Source of the DNA: an uncultured Methanosarcinales archaeon
Lineage (GTDB): Archaea > Nanobdellota > Nanobdellia > Woesearchaeales > JAGLXL01
Length of the DNA stretch: 64,000 nucleotides
Assembly: GCA_964364045.1 (NCBI GenBank)
Contig: CAYIKL010000001.1
Span: forward strand, 24,633 to 88,632
Reading direction: 5' to 3'
Within the stretch, counting starts at the first letter, position 1. Each line of letters starts with the position of its first letter. Under the pieces are notes generated by a model, which was not told the origin of the DNA, made no database searches, and saw only the letters and a program-made list of their open reading frames with translations. The position numbers and the translations under genes were made by a program. Below are positions 969 to 57,623 of this stretch, in pieces.

Positions 969-1984
969 CTTCCCAACCCCGTCTGCTCCCGCACTTCTTT
1001 CTCCTGGACAAACTTCTCCAGTTTCTGCTCAACTCTTTCAGCAGAAAAATTATTATCAACAAGCATTTCCTTTATCCCCTCAATATCAGGCATACTCCAT
1101 TGTAATACATAATCTTTCACGACCGGCATGTCTTTAATTGTATAAAAAATCTCTTTCCAATCAACATCAGTATGCTTTTTCCATTCAGCCTTCTCAAATA
1201 TTTTGTCAAAATCTTTCTGCCCTTTCACTAATTTCAGCGCCTTCTGTGGCCCGATGCCTGGAATGCCTTTTGGATTGTAATCGGTCCCTATCAACATCGC
1301 AATCACGATCAACTGCTCCCGATCGATGCCCAGCGTATTTAACATCTCACTCAACAAAATAAGCTCCGGCTTCACAATCTCATACGCCAACTTCCCAGCC
1401 TTCTTTCTTTTCCCTTCAACTGATAAATTTCGAACCAATCGCTCGCTTCCTGACAACAAGCTGTCATAATCCTGGCTCACGGCCGCAAACACATCCTTCT
1501 GTGTCATATAGGCTGCCTGTGCTTCCCCTTCACTCGGTGCCTGTACGATCGGTATGCCCAATAACCGAAGCAACTTCTTGCTCTCTTCAATCATTTCCTT
1601 TGTCAAAACCGTTGTCCGTGAGCTGTACTTTCTCATCGCTTCAACATCACCTTCTTTCTCTGCTTTCTCAAAGCGAATCCTGGCCTCTTCCTTTATTCCC
1701 CTCCGCCGCTCAATTTCTTTCCGCTTCAGCACAGGTGGTTTCCCATCAAAAACAAACACCAATTTCATTCCCTTCTCCATAAACGACGTGCAGCGGTAAA
1801 ACAGGCCATTTAAATGAGAAGTTACCTCTCCCTTGCTGTTGACCAACAAGCTTCCATCGCGCTGCCTGATGGTTGTCAAAAACTGGTACAGCATGTTATG
1901 TGCATCGACGGCAATCACTTTTCCATTCAGCTCCTCAAACGTAATGGTCTTTGCATGGACAAAATCCTTGAGTTTAACGCCCAT
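959..1984 (-). CDS. fen: Flap endonuclease FEN-1
   Basis: The N-terminus MGVKLKDFV...ELNGKVIAVDAHNMLYQFL is the classic FEN-1/XPG N-domain, followed by the I-domain and a C-terminal PIP-like tail. The length is 341 aa. Confidence 0.9.
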   Translation of the reverse strand: MGVKLKDFVHAKTITFEELNGKVIAVDAHNMLYQFLTTIRQRDGSLLVNSKGEVTSHLNGLFYRCTSFMEKGMKLVFVFDGKPPVLKRKEIERRRGIKEEARIRFEKAEKEGDVEAMRKYSSRTTVLTKEMIEESKKLLRLLGIPIVQAPSEGEAQAAYMTQKDVFAAVSQDYDSLLSGSERLVRNLSVEGKRKKAGKLAYEIVKPELILLSEMLNTLGIDREQLIVIAMLIGTDYNPKGIPGIGPQKALKLVKGQKDFDKIFEKAEWKKHTDVDWKEIFYTIKDMPVVKDYVLQWSMPDIEGIKEMLVDNNFSAERVEQKLEKFVQEKEVREQTGLGRWA

Positions 1985-3113: not shown

Positions 3114-3815
3114 TTACGGTCTTTTCCACGCAATCTCATAATAAGTCACATCATTCTCTTCGTCAACAACCCCCATCAGCAGCCGTTTCTTCGTGCTGTG
3201 CGCAACCCTGTTTTTCGCGCTAAAATCATGCCATGTAAGCATTTCACCTTCATGTACCGGATACACAACCCATCGTGCATGATCCTCGCCCGGCTTCACT
3301 CCGCGATCATACACCCTGAAATCAGCGCCAAACTTGAGCGCAGTCTTCACGATATAGCCTCTGTTTCTTAAATCTTTGAAAACAACATATTTAACCCATA
3401 CTTTAGGTTCAATTTTGGAAGCTTTCTTCACAAAAGCGTCAAAATCCACTTTCTTCCCTTTTGCATCCTTGACTAAAAGCTTTCCTGCTTCCATTAAATA
3501 CAAGCCTTCAAGCAGCGAGAGCTGCACTCTGCCATTGTCAAGGAGAGAGCCAAACCTGCTTTGATTGAAGAGCTCCCGTGCTTCACCACTGTTTTCGGTG
3601 AGCACCCGCTCTCTTCCCAAGACAGCTTTGACTTTCTTTTTTACCACCTTTCCAACACAAATGAGGAGATTTAATAAGCTTTTCTCTTGCCTCCCATTTC
3701 TCTTCGAAAACTTTATATACTCCCATTCACCACCATCACCAAGAGGGTCAATAATGGTTGAAGACAAAGAAAAGAAATTCTCACGCGATTTGATTGGTAA
3801 GACTGTTGTCAGCAA
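3114..3815 (-). CDS. endA: tRNA-splicing endonuclease EndA
   Basis: The C-terminal catalytic domain reads ...RGYIVKTALKFGADFRVYDRG...HARWVVYPVHE..., matching the conserved GxKFGxDFxxY block, His and Lys of archaeal EndA. The N-terminal boundary is uncertain because it overlaps the convergent PRC gene. Confidence 0.75.
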   Translation of the reverse strand: MLTTVLPIKSRENFFSLSSTIIDPLGDGGEWEYIKFSKRNGRQEKSLLNLLICVGKVVKKKVKAVLGRERVLTENSGEARELFNQSRFGSLLDNGRVQLSLLEGLYLMEAGKLLVKDAKGKKVDFDAFVKKASKIEPKVWVKYVVFKDLRNRGYIVKTALKFGADFRVYDRGVKPGEDHARWVVYPVHEGEMLTWHDFSAKNRVAHSTKKRLLMGVVDEENDVTYYEIAWKRP

Positions 3816-15193: not shown

Positions 15194-16846
15194 ATGCCAA
15201 CTGTAACCTTAAACAGAAAGGTAGTCGAGTCCATCATAGGGAAACGATTGTCGGTTGAAGAATTAAAAGACCGCATCTCGATGCTTGGCACTGATTTGGA
15301 GCACATCGATGACAATGAAATTGTCGTTGAGGTCTTCCCCAACCGTCCCGATATGCTGAGCGAGCAGGGCTTTGCACGCGCATTAAGTTCTTTTTTGGGT
15401 GTGAAGACCGGTTTGAGAAAGTATTCTATAAAGAAAGGTGGTTGTCGGATCATTGTAGATAAGTCTGTTACAATGCGTCCACATACAGTCTGTGCAATTG
15501 TAAAAGATCTTGTGTTTACGGACGAGCGCATCCGTGAAGTGATGCAGGTGCAGGAGAAGCTTTCGACAACCCATGGACGTAATAGAAAAAAGTCAGAGTA
15601 CGGGATTTATCCCTTAGAAAAGATTAAGTTTCCCGTCATCTACGTTGCAAAAGACCCAAAAACCGTAACCTTTCAGCCGCTGGGCTTTGATAAGGCGGTT
15701 CTCGCGTCGATGGTGCCTGAACATCACCCAAAGGGCAAAGCCTATCGGCATCTTACAGAAGGCTGGACAAAATATCCTTTCTTCATTGATGCGGATGGCA
15801 ATGTACTTTCGATGCTACCATTTACGAATTCACACGATACCGGCAAAATTGATCTGTCTACCACAGAAGTTTTTATAGAATGCACGGGTATTGATCTGCA
15901 TAACGTCTCGATTGCTCTCAACATTATCACCTCAATGCTTGCTGATATGGGAGGCACGATTTACAGCCTCGAAGTTACATCCCCTGGAAAGAAGCTGATC
16001 ACACCAGATTTCACTCCCTCTAAAATGAAGCTCAATCTTCCCTACATCAACAAGCTTCTTGGACTTAACCTGAAGCATGCTGAAGCGAAAAAGCTTCTCG
16101 AGCGGATGGGATATGGTGTTGACGGGAACACAGTGTTGATTCCCGCCTACCGTGCTGATATCCTGCACCAGTATGATCTCATTGAAGATATTGCCATTGC
16201 ATATGGATATGAAAACATTGTAGAGGAAATTCCGCGCGTTGCCACGATTGCGGAAGAGGCTCCTCTCACCCGGCTTACTGCGCATTTGACAGGGCTGCTG
16301 ACCGGCTTTGGTTTGCAGGAAACATGTAGTTATCATTTGCTCTCACACGACGAGCTGAGTGGGATGATTAATTCAAACACACCTATAATCCATCTGAAAA
16401 ACGCGCTCGTTGACTATGGATGTGTGCGCAATAGTATTATTCCGAGCATGCTGAAAGTGCTTGCACAAAACCAGCACAACGATTATCCCCAGAATATTTT
16501 TGAGATAGGGACAACATTTCATCCGGACAAAAAAGACGCATATGGCATCGCTGAGCACAGCATGTGCGCGATTGCAATCTGTCATGAAAGAGCTGATTTC
16601 ACTTCCATCCGGCAGATTATCGATGCGATCGGAATGACATTTGGCGTGAAATGGAGCATAGAAGAAGCATCAGTACCCAGTCTGATCGAAGGCCGCGCAG
16701 CCAAAGCAGTGGTAAATAAGAACCAGGTGGCCTCATTCGGCGAAATTCACCCACAGGTTCTTGCCAATTTCAACATCTCAATGCCGATAGCAGTAGCTGA
16801 AATCAATCTGCATACACTTTTTGAGTTAGTGAAGAAAGATATATAA
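15194..16846 (+). CDS. pheT: Phenylalanyl-tRNA synthetase beta subunit (archaeal type)
   Basis: The N-terminus MPTVTLNRKVVESIIGKRLSVEEL...EVFPNRPDMLS matches archaeal PheT B3/4 and B5 domains. The length is 550 aa. Confidence 0.9.
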   Translation: MPTVTLNRKVVESIIGKRLSVEELKDRISMLGTDLEHIDDNEIVVEVFPNRPDMLSEQGFARALSSFLGVKTGLRKYSIKKGGCRIIVDKSVTMRPHTVCAIVKDLVFTDERIREVMQVQEKLSTTHGRNRKKSEYGIYPLEKIKFPVIYVAKDPKTVTFQPLGFDKAVLASMVPEHHPKGKAYRHLTEGWTKYPFFIDADGNVLSMLPFTNSHDTGKIDLSTTEVFIECTGIDLHNVSIALNIITSMLADMGGTIYSLEVTSPGKKLITPDFTPSKMKLNLPYINKLLGLNLKHAEAKKLLERMGYGVDGNTVLIPAYRADILHQYDLIEDIAIAYGYENIVEEIPRVATIAEEAPLTRLTAHLTGLLTGFGLQETCSYHLLSHDELSGMINSNTPIIHLKNALVDYGCVRNSIIPSMLKVLAQNQHNDYPQNIFEIGTTFHPDKKDAYGIAEHSMCAIAICHERADFTSIRQIIDAIGMTFGVKWSIEEASVPSLIEGRAAKAVVNKNQVASFGEIHPQVLANFNISMPIAVAEINLHTLFELVKKDI

Positions 16847-16871: not shown

Positions 16872-16959
16872 GGGCCGGTAGCTCAGCCTGGTAGAGCACA
16901 ACGTTCGCATGATTATCCGAGAGACGTTGGGGCCTCGGGTTCAAATCCCGACCGGTCCA
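16872..16959 (+). tRNA. tRNA-Ala(CGC) with a 14-nt intron at the canonical 37/38 site
   Basis: Hand fold: acceptor GGGCCGG/CCGGTCC with G3:U70, D-arm GCTC-AGCCTGGTA-GAGC, anticodon stem CAACG, loop TTCGCAT, then the intron gattatccgagaga, then 3' stem CGTTG. The T-arm is TCGGG-TTCAAAT-CCCGA and the discriminator is A. No CCA is encoded. Confidence 0.8.
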
Positions 16960-17706: not shown

Positions 17707-18864
17707 TTAAGCGGCTGGTATATAAAGTTTCCTGCTTTCTGCTTCAGTCAGAATCTCAAGCCTGTTTGCCGTCGGCAGCACTTCAACCATTTTCTTCAGC
17801 GAATCTTTCGCATACGCAACTTTTGCCTGTGTCTCTCCAAACGGCTTGCCTGCATTCTCGTATAGATCCATAAATGCCTTTCTCCCACAACGCCCCTCCA
17901 AAAATCCTAACGTTTTTCTGATCTTTGATAGGGGAACAAGAACTCCATCTTCCGGTCTTCCAAGAATCGCATGAACAGCAGCATATATGGCATCATCAGA
18001 CACCTGCGTGCTATTCGTCTGTCTTTTAGGGGTCATAAGCCGGTTAAGTTTTTTAAGCGCTTCTCCTTCGATTTGTCTTACTCGTTCCCGTGAAAGATCT
18101 ATTTTATCTCCTATTTCCTGGAGCGTCATAGGAGAATAACCATTCAAGCCATATCTCATTTGAAGTATGTCAGCATCGCGTTCGCTCAACCATTCCAGCA
18201 TCTTGTTCATGAGTTCTACTTCATTCCCATATTCCAATGCGTCACCCGGACGCTCTGTATATGAACTCTCCAACGCATCCACAAGCTGCCCCTTATCTCC
18301 AACATGTGTTTCAAGTGACACTGTTGTCCCAAGAGTTAATGCCTTATAAAAAAGCTCATACCTTTCTTCAGGAATGTCCAACTTTGCAGCAAGTTCATGC
18401 ATCGTCGGCTCTCTGCCATTTTCAGAAACCATCTCTCTCGCGACTCTTTTCCAGTGCGCGATTTTCGGTACCAAATATGATGGAACACGTACCGTCTTTA
18501 CCTGATCTACCAGTGCACGTTTGATACTTTGGTGTATCCACCATGTTGCATAGGTTGAGAATCTGCACCCTTCCTCCAAATCAAATTTGCCCGTTGCTTT
18601 CATCAATCCAAGATTCCCTTCTTCAATAAGATCAAGAAGTCCCAACCCTCTGCTGACATACTTTTTTGCAATGCTGACCACAAGACGCAGATTTGAGTTA
18701 ATCAGCGCTTCTCGCGCTTCTTCATCCCCTTCATGTACACGTTCCGCAAGATTCCTTTCTTCTTCTCGTGAAAGAAGCTCAAATCTGTTCATTTCTATAA
18801 AATATTGTTCCAGAACATCTCGTTCATCCATATGTGTGCTAGAATATACACGATTAATAAGCAT
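17707..18864 (-). CDS. Bacterial-type sigma-70 family factor homolog (regions 1.2-2-3-4) with a novel ~100 aa C-terminal extension
   Basis: The sequence [74 protein letters not shown] aligns almost residue-for-residue with region 2.1-2.4 of RpoD ([52 protein letters not shown]...DQARTIRIP). [13 protein letters not shown] corresponds to region 3. ILQMRYGL...[28 protein letters not shown] is region 4.2. Confidence 0.85.
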
Positions 18865-30511: not shown

Positions 30512-30533
30512 TGTCTGTTAACTTTTATGATAA

Positions 30534-30619
30534 TGCGGGGGACGTGATTCGAACACGCGTACCCACTAAGGGACTAGGCCCTCAACCTAGCGCATTTGAC
30601 CAGGCTCTGCCACCCCCGC
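30534..30619 (-). tRNA. tRNA-Leu(GAG), long variable arm
   Basis: Reverse complement: GCGGGGG-TG-GCA-GAGCCTGGTCAAA-TGC-G-CTAGG-TTGAGGG-CCTAG-(long variable arm)-GCGTG-TTCGAAT-CACGT-CCCCCGC-A. The anticodon is GAG. The gene sits inside the r-protein/RNAP operon between rpoD and rpl18e. Confidence 0.8.
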
Positions 30620-30620
30620 A

Positions 30621-47189: not shown

Positions 47190-48272
47190 ATGACAAAAAT
47201 AACCTTATCTGCGATAAAAGCTGATATCGGCAGCATTGGCGGCCATACAAAGCCAAGCGATGAGCTGTTCAACACCCTAAAAAATTTCATTCTCGAAAAA
47301 GGAAAAAATATGCTTGTTGATTTTTATGTTGGCTATACAGGCGATGATATTCATCTTCTCTTGTCCCATAGAAAAGGAATAAACAATGAAGAGATACACA
47401 AACTTGCATGGGACGCCTTCAAGGCCGGAACTGAGATAGCAAAAAAACAAGGTCTCTACGGTGCAGGGCAAGACTTGCTGAAAGATTCTTTCGCCGGCAA
47501 CGTCCGCGGCTTGGGCCCAGGCGTTGCTGAAATGGAGTTCGAAGAGAGGCCGAGTGAAGCATTTGCGCTCGTTACAGCGGACAAAACCGAACCAGGCGCG
47601 TTTAACTTCCCATTCTATCGGCTTTTTTGCGAGCCTTCTGCAAATACCGGTCTGCTCCTCAATAAGTCATTAGCATCAGTTGTTATCACGGTGATGGATG
47701 TCATGACAGGGAAAAAAGCTGAGCTCACAACACCGCACGATATATTCCTGATTGCTGCGGTGCTGATGTATCCAGGCAGGTATGTGGTTGACTCGGTGAA
47801 AAATAAGGAACACGAGCCAATACTCGTCGCAACAACAGATCGGCTGCATAATATTGCAGGGACATATGTTGGAAAGGATGATCCTGCTGCGATCATCCGG
47901 TTGCAAAAAAATTTTCCAGCTACAGAGGAAGCATGTTCAGTGTTCAAAACCGCACATTATGTCGCAGGCAATACGCGTGGGAGTCACCATCTGCCGCTGA
48001 TGCCGGTAAAGAAATGCACTGCAGCCAGTGCAAATTTCTGTATACCCATCGTCAGCTGCATGTTGTTCAGCATGCACGATGGAAAATTAACTGCATACAC
48101 CGATGCGTTTGATACCCCCGATTGGGATTATTACAGAAACAAAGCAGTACAAAAAGCTGAGTATATGCGCGAGCAAGGTTTTGTTCATCCTGCAACGCTT
48201 GTTCCTGAGGAACTCGAATACAGTCCTGCCTATAAAGCAATGATGAGTGAAGTCGAGAAAAGATTTAAATAA
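47190..48272 (+). CDS. fbp: Bifunctional fructose-1,6-bisphosphate aldolase/phosphatase (class V FBPase)
   Basis: MTKITLSAIKADIGSIGGHTKPSDELF matches the conserved N-terminus of archaeal FBPA/P. The length is 360 aa. Confidence 0.85.
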   Translation: MTKITLSAIKADIGSIGGHTKPSDELFNTLKNFILEKGKNMLVDFYVGYTGDDIHLLLSHRKGINNEEIHKLAWDAFKAGTEIAKKQGLYGAGQDLLKDSFAGNVRGLGPGVAEMEFEERPSEAFALVTADKTEPGAFNFPFYRLFCEPSANTGLLLNKSLASVVITVMDVMTGKKAELTTPHDIFLIAAVLMYPGRYVVDSVKNKEHEPILVATTDRLHNIAGTYVGKDDPAAIIRLQKNFPATEEACSVFKTAHYVAGNTRGSHHLPLMPVKKCTAASANFCIPIVSCMLFSMHDGKLTAYTDAFDTPDWDYYRNKAVQKAEYMREQGFVHPATLVPEELEYSPAYKAMMSEVEKRFK

Positions 48273-48283
48273 TTCTAAAAACA

Positions 48284-48397
48284 TGTGGGCGGCAGGGCTT
48301 TCGTTTTCAATTCGAACCTGCGTAGGCACTAAGCCAGTGGATCTTGAGTCCACCCCGTATAGTCCGCATAAGCGTTTGACCACTCCGGCACGCCCAC
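48284..48397 (-). tRNA. Candidate tRNA-Leu(CAA) with two non-canonical introns, in the D-loop and the T-arm
   Basis: The reverse complement folds as acceptor GTGGGCG/CGCCCAC, D-stem CCG..CGG, anticodon arm GTGGA-CTCAAGA-TCCAC (anticodon CAA), variable arm GGC-TTAGT-GCC and T-arm GCAGG-TTCGAAT...CCTGC. About 16 extra nt lie in the D-loop and about 13 nt (TGAAAACGAAAGC) lie between the T-loop and the T-stem 3' strand. Confidence 0.5.
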
Positions 48398-48435
48398 ATA
48401 ATCTCAAAACAGAAGTAATGGATATATAAATGTCA

Positions 48436-48891
48436 CTACATCTCTCCCAGCTTCCCTTCAATGTCGTTCAGTTCACTCTCTAACTTCTCTAAGTCATTGA
48501 GGGCGCGCGGCTTTACCTCTTTAATTTTCGAAACCTTCTCTTCTTTTTGCTGATGTATCCTCACGTGCTTCAAAAAGCCTGCAGTATCACTAAACTCCTT
48601 CCTGCACAGTTCACAAAAAGGCTTGTGCTTCGGCAGGCTCACATGCGGCCGGGCGTTTGGAAAAGATTTTTTTAACTTTCCAACAAGCGATCGCAAATCC
48701 TTCACTTCCGCATCAAGCTGGAGCATCGCCTGGAACTTTTGCTCTCTTATTTCCTTAAGCTTTTCATATCGTTGAAGAAAGCGCACTGCCTCCCTGGCGC
48801 TCTCAAGCAAATTACGCCTGACTTCAGTCGGATCGCGGACGCCAACATAGAAGACCTCTTCAGATCGTTTGCGCTTTTTCTTCTGTTTCAT
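48436..48891 (-). CDS. C2H2 zinc-finger coiled-coil protein
   Basis: CELCRKEFSDTAGFLKHVRIH is a C2H2 finger, and the protein has a K/E-rich N-terminus. Confidence 0.45.
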   Translation of the reverse strand: MKQKKKRKRSEEVFYVGVRDPTEVRRNLLESAREAVRFLQRYEKLKEIREQKFQAMLQLDAEVKDLRSLVGKLKKSFPNARPHVSLPKHKPFCELCRKEFSDTAGFLKHVRIHQQKEEKVSKIKEVKPRALNDLEKLESELNDIEGKLGEM

Positions 48892-49115
48892 AATGCGTTG
48901 GGATCAGAAAGTGTTTTATCAATAAACTCTATTTTCCGCTCAGCCTCATCAATAGTCTCTTGCCATAGCTCTAATTCAGCAGCTTCCTCTCCCCTGAGCT
49001 GGTTGATTTTCTCAAGTGTATGCTTTGCGTTTTCAATTTTCGCACGAATCATGTTCATCAGGTCAAGCGCCTCTTTGAAATCCTCTACTTTTACGAATAC
49101 CGGCATCTCATTCAT
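48888..49115 (-). CDS. Small coiled-coil protein (paralog of 49121..49507)
   Basis: Shares the motif VFVKVEDFKEALDLMNMIRAKIE with TFVKMETFQAVLADVVSVRSRLD in the neighbouring gene. Confidence 0.4.
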   Translation of the reverse strand: MNEMPVFVKVEDFKEALDLMNMIRAKIENAKHTLEKINQLRGEEAAELELWQETIDEAERKIEFIDKTLSDPNAL

Positions 49116-49120
49116 TCATA

Positions 49121-49507
49121 TCACCCTCTTTTGAACAGAACATTATCAATATAGTTCAGCTTCTCATGAATCACTTTAATGTCAGACTGCCACGATTTCA
49201 GCAGATTATTCTGCTCTTCATGAACCTCTTCCAATCGCATAACCACTCTTCCAGATTTATCGAGCCGTGAGCGCACACTGACAACGTCGGCCAGCACAGC
49301 TTGAAACGTCTCCATTTTCACGAAGGTTGACATTTGATTGGACTCAGAAAATTCAGGCTCTGAAGATGGAAGCTCCAAATCATCGATGAAATGCTCCGGC
49401 TCCTCAAGTTTATCTTCTATCTCCGGCAGGCTTGGAAACGTCGGCATTTCGTGTGGTGCTGGCGGAACCACCAGTGGCCTTTTTTTTCTTGTAAACAGTC
49501 CTGACAT
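49121..49507 (-). CDS. Coiled-coil protein (paralog of 48888..49115)
   Basis: Acidic N-terminus followed by a shared helical core. Confidence 0.4.
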   Translation of the reverse strand: MSGLFTRKKRPLVVPPAPHEMPTFPSLPEIEDKLEEPEHFIDDLELPSSEPEFSESNQMSTFVKMETFQAVLADVVSVRSRLDKSGRVVMRLEEVHEEQNNLLKSWQSDIKVIHEKLNYIDNVLFKRG

Positions 49508-57297: not shown

Positions 57298-57623
57298 GAG
57301 GATGGTGCGGGACTACGGCGTAAGCCGAGGAAAGTCCGCCCACTCGATGCACGCGATGCCTTCAACGGCAGAACGTGCGGGAAAGAGCCACTTTCGGAAG
57401 AAAGCTTGGGAAACCGAGGTCAATGGATCAGAAACGACACGGCCTGGTCAGAGGATGACGCGCGCGAAGTTTCCGGCGACGGAAATGAGCTAACCCGCTG
57501 ACGTTTTTCCAGGAAACGATGAAACGGCGAACACTGGCTTGTGCAAGCCAATATGGCGCTCAGTAGAATGTCCCGAAACGCTGTTCGAAAGAAGCGTAAC
57601 AGAAGGCGGCTTACACCATCCTC
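57298..57623 (+). ncRNA. rnpB: RNase P RNA (archaeal type A-like)
   Basis: A P4 5' strand CGAGGAAAGTCCGCC, the CR-IV/V-like ACAGAAGGCGGCTTAC and GTGCGGGAAAGAGCCAC are present. The terminal P1 pairing is GAGGATGGTG...CACCATCCTC. A TATA box (TTTATAAA, 57270-57277) lies about 25 nt upstream. Confidence 0.8.

Follow-up and report, generated by a model that had tools for sequence, protein, structure and literature searches.

A candidate tRNA-Leu(CAA) gene with two mini-introns, in the D-loop and the T-loop, in a DPANN-type groundwater archaeon

The question raised by this locus is whether a short segment that annotation pipelines cover with an open reading frame is instead a leucine tRNA gene interrupted at two unusual places, as an earlier note had proposed when it read positions 48284-48397 of the stretch of DNA analysed here (64 kb in all, hereafter the window) as a tRNA-Leu(CAA) with two non-canonical introns. 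In this study, we find that reading supported because the exons match a covariance model of tRNA-Leu(CAA), a central helix lies in register at both junctions, and an orthologue on another contig (L181) carries homologous introns. We put at roughly 0.9 the probability that a DPANN-type groundwater archaeon has in this segment a functional tRNA-Leu(CAA) gene with its own transcription, made of three exons and two mini-introns whose splicing we infer from the sequence. The coordinates proposed earlier are exactly those of the gene, from tRNA position 1 to the discriminator A73, and its parts are as follows.

48397-48284, minus strand: precursor tRNA-Leu(CAA), 114 nt, with three exons and two introns
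48376-48397, minus strand: exon 1, 22 nt, comprising the acceptor 5' strand, U8 and G9, the D-stem 5' strand and the D-loop to A21 (covariance-model alignment and cloverleaf fold)
48359-48375, minus strand: predicted intron 1, 17 nt, ACGCUUAUGCGGACUAU, D-loop site 21/22, HBh' (MFE fold, register and the L181 homologue)
48311-48358, minus strand: exon 2, 48 nt, comprising A22, the D-stem 3' strand, the anticodon arm with CAA, the long variable arm, the T-stem 5' strand and the T-loop to A59 (covariance-model alignment)
48298-48310, minus strand: predicted intron 2, 13 nt, UUGAAAACGAAAG, T-loop site 59/60, hBH (MFE fold, register and the homologues in L181 and L133/L134)
48284-48297, minus strand: exon 3, 14 nt, comprising C60, the T-stem 3' strand, the acceptor 3' strand and the discriminator A73 (sequence and covariance-model alignment)

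Read from 48397 to 48284 on the minus strand, with slashes at the intron limits, the gene is GTGGGCG TG CCGG AGTGGTCAA/ACGCTTATGCGGACTAT/ACGG G GTGGA CTCAAGA TCCAC TGGCTTAGTGCCTAC GCAGG TTCGAA/TTGAAAACGAAAG/C CCTGC CGCCCAC A. The CCA is not encoded at its 3' end. The same sequence is present in two further independent assemblies of replicate samples (L001 and L179), three in all.

As had been anticipated, standard finders miss this gene. ARAGORN called three other tRNAs in the 64-kb window and none at 48284-48397; with intron options and lowered thresholds it returned only nonsense calls on the unspliced region (a Leu with a 124-nt 'intron' and an antisense Ser), and the Rfam tRNA model gave no match at the locus, whether run over the region at E<=10 or over all 64 kb at E<=5. 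Spurious open reading frames overlap the tRNA on both strands, as the earlier note had remarked, at 48087-48461 on the minus strand and at 48247-48429 on the plus strand, and in L001 a public gene caller laid a 48-aa ORF over it, so that a tRNA gene is recovered here from a place where annotation pipelines put a spurious ORF. An intron-less tRNA-Leu(GAG) elsewhere in the window (30533-30620, minus strand) is called by ARAGORN and by our own covariance model, and the Rfam tRNA model misses it both at its gathering threshold and at E<=5; tRNAs with a long variable arm are thus under-called here even when they have no introns.

The covariance model (R1) was built from tRNA-Leu(CAA) genes of the metagenome. 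A pattern scan returned 87 such genes, 85 of them intron-less, from which 40 distinct, independent intron-less sequences were aligned, with the window's own sequence excluded. The pattern tolerated D-loops longer by as many as 28 nt, but none of the 87 matches had an insert there. Run with filters off against the window, R1 matched 48291-48391 on the minus strand (58.7 bits, E 2e-13) and placed 18 nt at one D-loop model position and 14 nt at one T-loop position, that is, inserts of 17 and 13 nt. The insert sizes first suggested were about 16 and about 13 nt; the second holds, and the first becomes 17 nt, at 21/22. The sole stronger R1 match in the window is the tRNA-Leu(GAG), matched at 30534-30619 (73.9 bits), and the search revealed no second tRNA-Leu(CAA) within the 64 kb.

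With both inserts removed, the remaining 84-mer is called tRNA-Leu(CAA) by ARAGORN and folds into a class II cloverleaf, in agreement with the leucine cloverleaf with a long variable arm that had been drawn for it. All 23 of the 23 cloverleaf pairs are intact, and the spliced molecule has a 7-bp acceptor stem, a 3-bp D-stem, G18G19, a 5-bp anticodon stem, a 7-nt anticodon loop with CAA, a variable arm with its own stem, a T-loop of the form UUCGAAY and A73. The predicted mature tRNA would carry the D-loop AGUGGUCAA, the anticodon loop CUCAAGA, a variable arm of 15 nt and the T-loop UUCGAAC, with exon junctions predicted at GGUCAA^ACGGGG and GGUUCGAA^CCCUGC. The second insert had been placed between the T-loop and the T-stem; we find it inside the T-loop, at 59/60. 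The nearest intron-less tRNA-Leu(CAA), L137/L162, is 91% identical to the spliced product, and the differences in the acceptor stem and the T-stem are compensatory.

The bulge-helix-bulge (BHB) structures looked for at the two junctions are present in relaxed form, each with a 4-bp central helix in register. Left unconstrained, the MFE fold of the precursor (114 nt) has -47.5 kcal/mol and a z of -3.5, a stability that none of 200 shuffles reached, and is the cloverleaf with two extra hairpins that contain both helix-bulge-helix motifs. By register we mean that the four base pairs of the central helix join exon nt -6 to -3 with intron nt -6 to -3, which puts each of the two cuts 2 nt past the 3' end of a helix strand, a rule that fits the canonical 37/38 introns of the orthologues L175 and L172 (CUCA with UGAG) and of the tRNA-Ala(CGC) in the window (UUCG with CGAG). 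In intron 1 the D-loop GGUC pairs with GACU at the intron 3' end, with four of four pairs in register; the 5' site is a 3-nt bulge (AA/A, the slash marking the cut) closed by an inner helix of CGC with GCG and a UUAU loop, and the 3' site (AU/A, opposite GAGU) falls in a 4x3 internal loop that separates the central helix from the D-stem and in which the MFE fold weakly pairs two nt (U16-A38 and G15-U39). In intron 2 the T-stem forms the outer helix, the central helix of UUCG with CGAA again has four of four pairs in register, and the 3' site is a clean 3-nt bulge (AG/C) closed by the T-stem; the 5' site lies within a 9-nt loop and has no inner helix. Shuffled introns gave a 4/4 helix in register in only 6% and 7% of trials. 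Intron 1 is accordingly of the HBh' form at 21/22 and intron 2 of the hBH form (bulge-helix-loop) at 59/60, a known archaeal tRNA intron site (PMC4090602; PMC3239211), and in the MFE fold neither shows the strict hBHBh' arrangement, in which a flanking helix closes each of two 3-nt bulges. Self-splicing group I or group II introns were considered and rejected; the inserts have only 13 and 17 nt against a ribozyme core of well over 100 nt, and no Rfam intron model matches in 48150-48550.

The tRNA-Ala(CGC) just mentioned (16872-16959, plus strand; G3:U70) is reported by ARAGORN as 'tRNA-???'. Its 14-nt intron at 37/38, UGAUUAUCCGAGAG, has almost no inner helix beside its central helix, and even a canonical intron of this genome is therefore minimal and relaxed. 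Adjoining this tRNA and archaeal-type ribosomal protein genes, at 17707-18864 on the minus strand, is a gene for a complete bacterial-type sigma-70 factor, with Pfam regions 1.2, 2, 3 and 4 all above cut-off, within this archaeal window.

Further evidence comes from the neighbourhood of the gene. A small zinc-finger gene (48436-48891, minus strand) lies directly upstream of the tRNA, and the contigs that carry its homologues were compared. The same zinc-finger gene is followed directly by a tRNA-Leu(CAA) in L169, L172/L173, L175 and L181; in L170, L171, L176-L178 and L180 there is no tRNA or the contig ends too early. The upstream cluster as a whole (48436-49507, minus strand) has three genes for zinc-finger proteins of 128, 75 and 151 aa with no Pfam assignment, the 128-aa and 75-aa products being weakly similar to each other; it is found upstream of tRNA-Leu(CAA) in the window, L169, L172/L173 and L175, and recurs on other DPANN-like contigs among the loci L169-L178 and L133. 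On the other side lies an FBPase gene, whose product is nearest to MAGs labelled Micrarchaeota or Hadarchaeota. Among GTDB representative genomes, the best FBPase relatives (75-78% identity) have no tRNA beside the FBPase gene. The FBPase also led to L181 (83% identity), which has the same gene order as the window, with FBPase and tRNA convergent and the zinc-finger gene upstream of, and in the same direction as, the tRNA. It was only by way of this closer FBPase relative that the homologous D-loop intron came to light.

The tRNA-Leu(CAA) of L181 (JGI Ga0637471_0038737, 1097-1325, minus strand) spans 229 nt and apparently has four introns, at 21/22 (15 nt), at 37/38 (54 nt), in the variable loop after UGGCUUAG (45 nt, central helix GCUU with AAGC) and at 59/60 (31 nt). 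Removal of the four inserts leaves an 84-nt tRNA that ARAGORN calls Leu(CAA). Three introns is the stated maximum for an archaeal tRNA gene (PMC3239211), and a literature search on this point turned up no tRNA gene with as many.

The 21/22 and 59/60 sites of the window are both occupied by introns in L181. Because of the extra introns of L181, MAFFT misaligned the two genes past the first intron, and the 3' part was compared by explicit splicing instead of the MAFFT alignment. The spliced tRNAs differ at 3 of 84 nt, including a compensatory change of G27-C43 to A27-U43, and exon 1 differs only by U16 to C; the variable arm and the T arm of the window are identical to those of L175 and L181. 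The D-loop intron of L181 reads A-CC-UUAU-GG-GACC-AA against A-CGC-UUAU-GCG-GACU-AU in the window, so that two single-base gaps remove both partners of the middle inner-helix pair, a G-C pair replaces a G.U as GACU becomes GACC, and all helices are kept. The 59/60 intron of L181 ends in CGAA plus 2 nt, as does that of L133. The splice motifs are thus conserved with structure-preserving changes, a comparison that draws on one or two sequences per intron.

L133 (1683-1833) and an identical stretch in L134 (Ga0209427_10154515 and Ga0209536_100136579) hold a further tRNA-Leu(CAA) with two introns, one at 15/16 (32 nt, central helix CCGG with CCGG) and one at 59/60 (35 nt). The latter has the same site and central helix as in the window and shares AGCUUCGCUG with the 59/60 intron of L181. 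Since L181 (31 nt) and L133/L134 (35 nt) have introns at this site, the 13-nt intron of the window looks like an older 59/60 intron that has become shorter. One conserved locus then provides a natural series for the gain, loss and shortening of archaeal tRNA introns.

Window: introns at 21/22 and 59/60
L181: introns at 21/22, at 37/38, in the variable loop and at 59/60
L133: introns at 15/16 and 59/60
L175 and L172: the canonical 37/38 intron only

Other disturbances were seen at this locus. L169 (880-1003), the closest relative by its zinc-finger protein (67% identity), has a 37/38 intron homologous to that of L181, and a duplicated CCGGAGTGG/GCGGAGTGG segment interrupts its D-arm, in which no BHB intron in register could be resolved; the contig ends in the variable arm. 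In L172 (2520-2960) and L173, which has the same sequence, a second copy of the promoter and of the initial 24 nt of the tRNA stands some 150 nt upstream of the gene, and in L172 and L175 (640-990) the final 12-14 nt of the tRNA are repeated 90-100 nt downstream. These repeats look like traces left by an element that integrated at the tRNA.

The gene also has its own expression signals.

48423-48430, minus strand: archaeal TATA box TTTATATA, 33 nt upstream of tRNA position 1 (sequence)
48277-48281, minus strand: run of five Ts, 2 nt after the discriminator, a likely transcription stop (sequence)

The spacing of the TATA box matches that of TATATAAA at 16840, which lies 32 nt upstream of the tRNA-Ala of the window, and the orthologues in L181, L175, L172 and L169 also carry TTTATATA at this place. 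Similar T-runs follow the 3' ends of the tRNA-Ala and of the L175 and L172 orthologues.

These signals bear on the possibility that the locus is a pseudogene, a former tRNA-Leu(CAA) with two short insertions that are never removed, its UUG codons being read by another leucine tRNA. UUG can also be read by tRNA-Leu(UAA) through wobble, and the gene therefore need not be essential; the failure of standard finders, the relaxed form of both motifs and an EndA in view that has none of the known broad-specificity loops would all fit a decayed gene. However, promoter and terminator have been kept, the cloverleaf pairs are intact throughout, and the gene fills the conserved tRNA-Leu(CAA) slot of its neighbourhood. 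The exons are 96% identical to those of L181, compared with about 80% in the spacer between promoter and gene (counted by eye), and one of the few exon changes is the compensatory pair; the inserts of L181 differ only in ways that keep the helices, including the loss of both partners of one inner pair. Strong constraint on the exons, together with introns that vary only with their helices preserved, argues against decay, and we regard a pseudogene as very unlikely.

A second possibility is that the gene is split and functional with its introns bounded differently, for example intron 2 at 60/61, as the earlier note implied, which would give the T-loop UUCGAAU, or intron 1 at 22/23 to 24/25. U60 is the commonest residue at this T-loop position in the family, and for intron 1 the 21/22 site and three neighbouring placements all yield an identical product, so that the sequence by itself cannot fix the cut. 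Yet only 21/22 and 59/60 give a 4-bp helix in the register of the canonical introns, and at 60/61 the central helix would have one of four pairs (UCGA against GAAA, by hand). Moreover, the intron-less T arm of L175, GCAGG-UUCGAAC-CCUGC, is the same as the predicted spliced product of the window; this identity, which extends to the variable arm, supports the C60 junction, the T-loop UUCGAAC also occurs uninterrupted, with the same T-stem, in L158, and the T-loop introns of L181 and L133 share the ending found at 59/60. Other boundaries are therefore very improbable in our judgement. That there is no gene here, the resemblance being due to chance or to an assembly artefact, has nothing in its favour beyond the silence of the standard finders and is scarcely credible against an E value of 2e-13, identical sequence in three assemblies and orthologues in the same neighbourhood.

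For a functional tRNA-Leu(CAA) with introns at 21/22 and 59/60, the following course of events may be envisaged. A precursor of about 114 nt plus a leader would be transcribed and would fold into the cloverleaf with two extra hairpins, one in the D-loop, where GGUC would pair with GACU of the intron 3' end, and one in the T-arm, where UUCG of the T-loop would pair with CGAA of the intron 3' end. EndA, the presumed enzyme for both introns, would cut two nt 3' of each central-helix strand, releasing introns of 17 and 13 nt and leaving exons of 22, 48 and 14 nt for an RtcB-type ligase to join. RNase P and a 3' nuclease would trim the ends, and CCA would be added after transcription. The window contains an RNase P RNA at 57298-57623. 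In vitro cleavage of a 59/60 hBH intron by EndA has been reported for ARMAN-2 (PMC3239211).

The enzyme itself raises a second question. The earlier note had pointed to an endA gene in the window and linked it to broad specificity.

3114-3815, minus strand: endA ORF, tRNA-splicing endonuclease of a single alpha-type unit (Pfam N-terminal and catalytic domains both matched)

The gene is confirmed by its Pfam domains, its real start probably being internal and giving a protein of about 176 aa, against 176-200 aa in homologues; the broad specificity is not borne out, since the product is of the single-unit alpha type and by sequence has none of the features associated with it (CSL/L1, ASL/L2, the N. 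equitans-type loop/L3 or a multi-unit form). Among proteins of solved structure, the alpha subunit of N. equitans and the EndA of M. jannaschii come closest to it. With the latter, an alpha4 protein, the product is collinear and shares a catalytic Tyr-to-His spacing of 9 residues; in N. equitans EndA this span is longer by 6 residues, which form its specific loop (PMC3488258), and in the A. pernix alpha subunit 8 additional residues are found in the N-terminal region, the site of the Crenarchaea-specific loop. The 120 nearest homologues (P0149-P0268) are 70-99% identical to the window EndA, and many are labelled Woesearchaeota or Nanoarchaeota, so that FBPase and EndA together give an ambiguous placement within DPANN. 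All are single-unit proteins, mostly of 176-235 aa, with no N. equitans-type insertion, and all 120 have the 9-residue spacing, the motif YDRGxKPGEDH and a C-terminal Trp (W-x-R-P). By these sequence features they make up a large, uniform DPANN EndA clade. A tblastn search revealed no EndA paralogue in the 64-kb window, only a chance match inside a ribosomal protein gene.

The locus thus pairs relaxed non-canonical introns with a loop-less single-unit EndA. Relaxed motifs have been held to need a loop-bearing EndA of the (alpha-beta)2 or epsilon2 type, the loops being linked to broad specificity (PMC5829648; PMC3488258), and alpha4-type EndAs have been noted in DPANN lineages with many disrupted tRNA genes (PMC5829648). 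It is possible, though we hold the idea only tentatively and think it rather doubtful, that a single-unit, loop-less, M. jannaschii-like EndA removes relaxed introns from D-, variable and T-loops in this DPANN clade. Were this so, up to four introns would be removed from the one tRNA gene of the sister lineage L181, more than the three of PMC3239211; broad specificity would have arisen by a further route, for which the YDRGxKPGEDH loop and the C-terminal Trp would be candidates; and the accepted view that ties EndA loops to disrupted tRNA genes would have to be revised.

The known systems that come closest share some of these features and differ in others. The earlier note was right that multiple non-canonical introns are known from Crenarchaeota and DPANN (PMC3239211; PMC4090602; PMC4033280). 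In ARMAN-2 (Ca. Micrarchaeum acidiphilum), pre-tRNA-Cys(GCA) has an intron at 59/60 and pre-tRNA-Pro(GGG) has introns at 53/54 and 59/60 (Fujishima et al., 2011; PMC3239211). Like the present organism, it belongs to DPANN, has a 59/60 T-loop intron with a relaxed hBH motif and has one gene with more than one intron. In contrast, its EndA is of the three-unit epsilon2 type with a specific loop (K161), which the single-unit alpha type of the window does not have; other tRNA species are involved, and the second intron of the window lies in the D-loop.

In Thermoproteales and other Crenarchaeota, up to three BHB-type introns per gene occur at non-canonical sites that include 20/21, 22/23 and 59/60 (Sugahara et al., 2007, 2008; reviewed in PMC4090602 and PMC4033280). 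Relaxed motifs are common there, genes are missed by standard tRNA finders and introns show a rapid turnover between relatives, all of which recall the present locus. The Crenarchaeota differ in their (alpha-beta)2 EndA with the Crenarchaea-specific loop and in phylum and habitat, and the window introns, at 13 and 17 nt, are unusually short in comparison.

A D-arm intron of the relaxed HBh' form is known from pre-tRNA-Glu(UUC) of M. kandleri (Kaneta et al., 2018; PMC5829648), which resembles intron 1 of the window in both place and form and whose EndA likewise has no specific loop. That enzyme is, however, an (alpha-beta)2 heterotetramer that cleaves the intron inefficiently in vitro, whereas the enzyme of the window is by sequence a single alpha-type unit. 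With the canonical hBHBh' intron at 37/38 (Marck & Grosjean, 2003, as cited in PMC4090602), the window introns share the 4-bp central helix and the cut register, and the same enzyme family would be expected to act on both; they differ in lying in the D-loop and the T-loop and in having one bulge each that is not closed by a flanking helix.

Archaeal tRNA genes with several introns have thus already been described, also in DPANN, and the gene in the window adds one more. Undetected disrupted tRNA genes have been predicted in DPANN, and tRNAs missing from DPANN genomes have been attributed to them (PMC5829648); hidden split genes such as the one proposed here would help to explain these apparent gaps.
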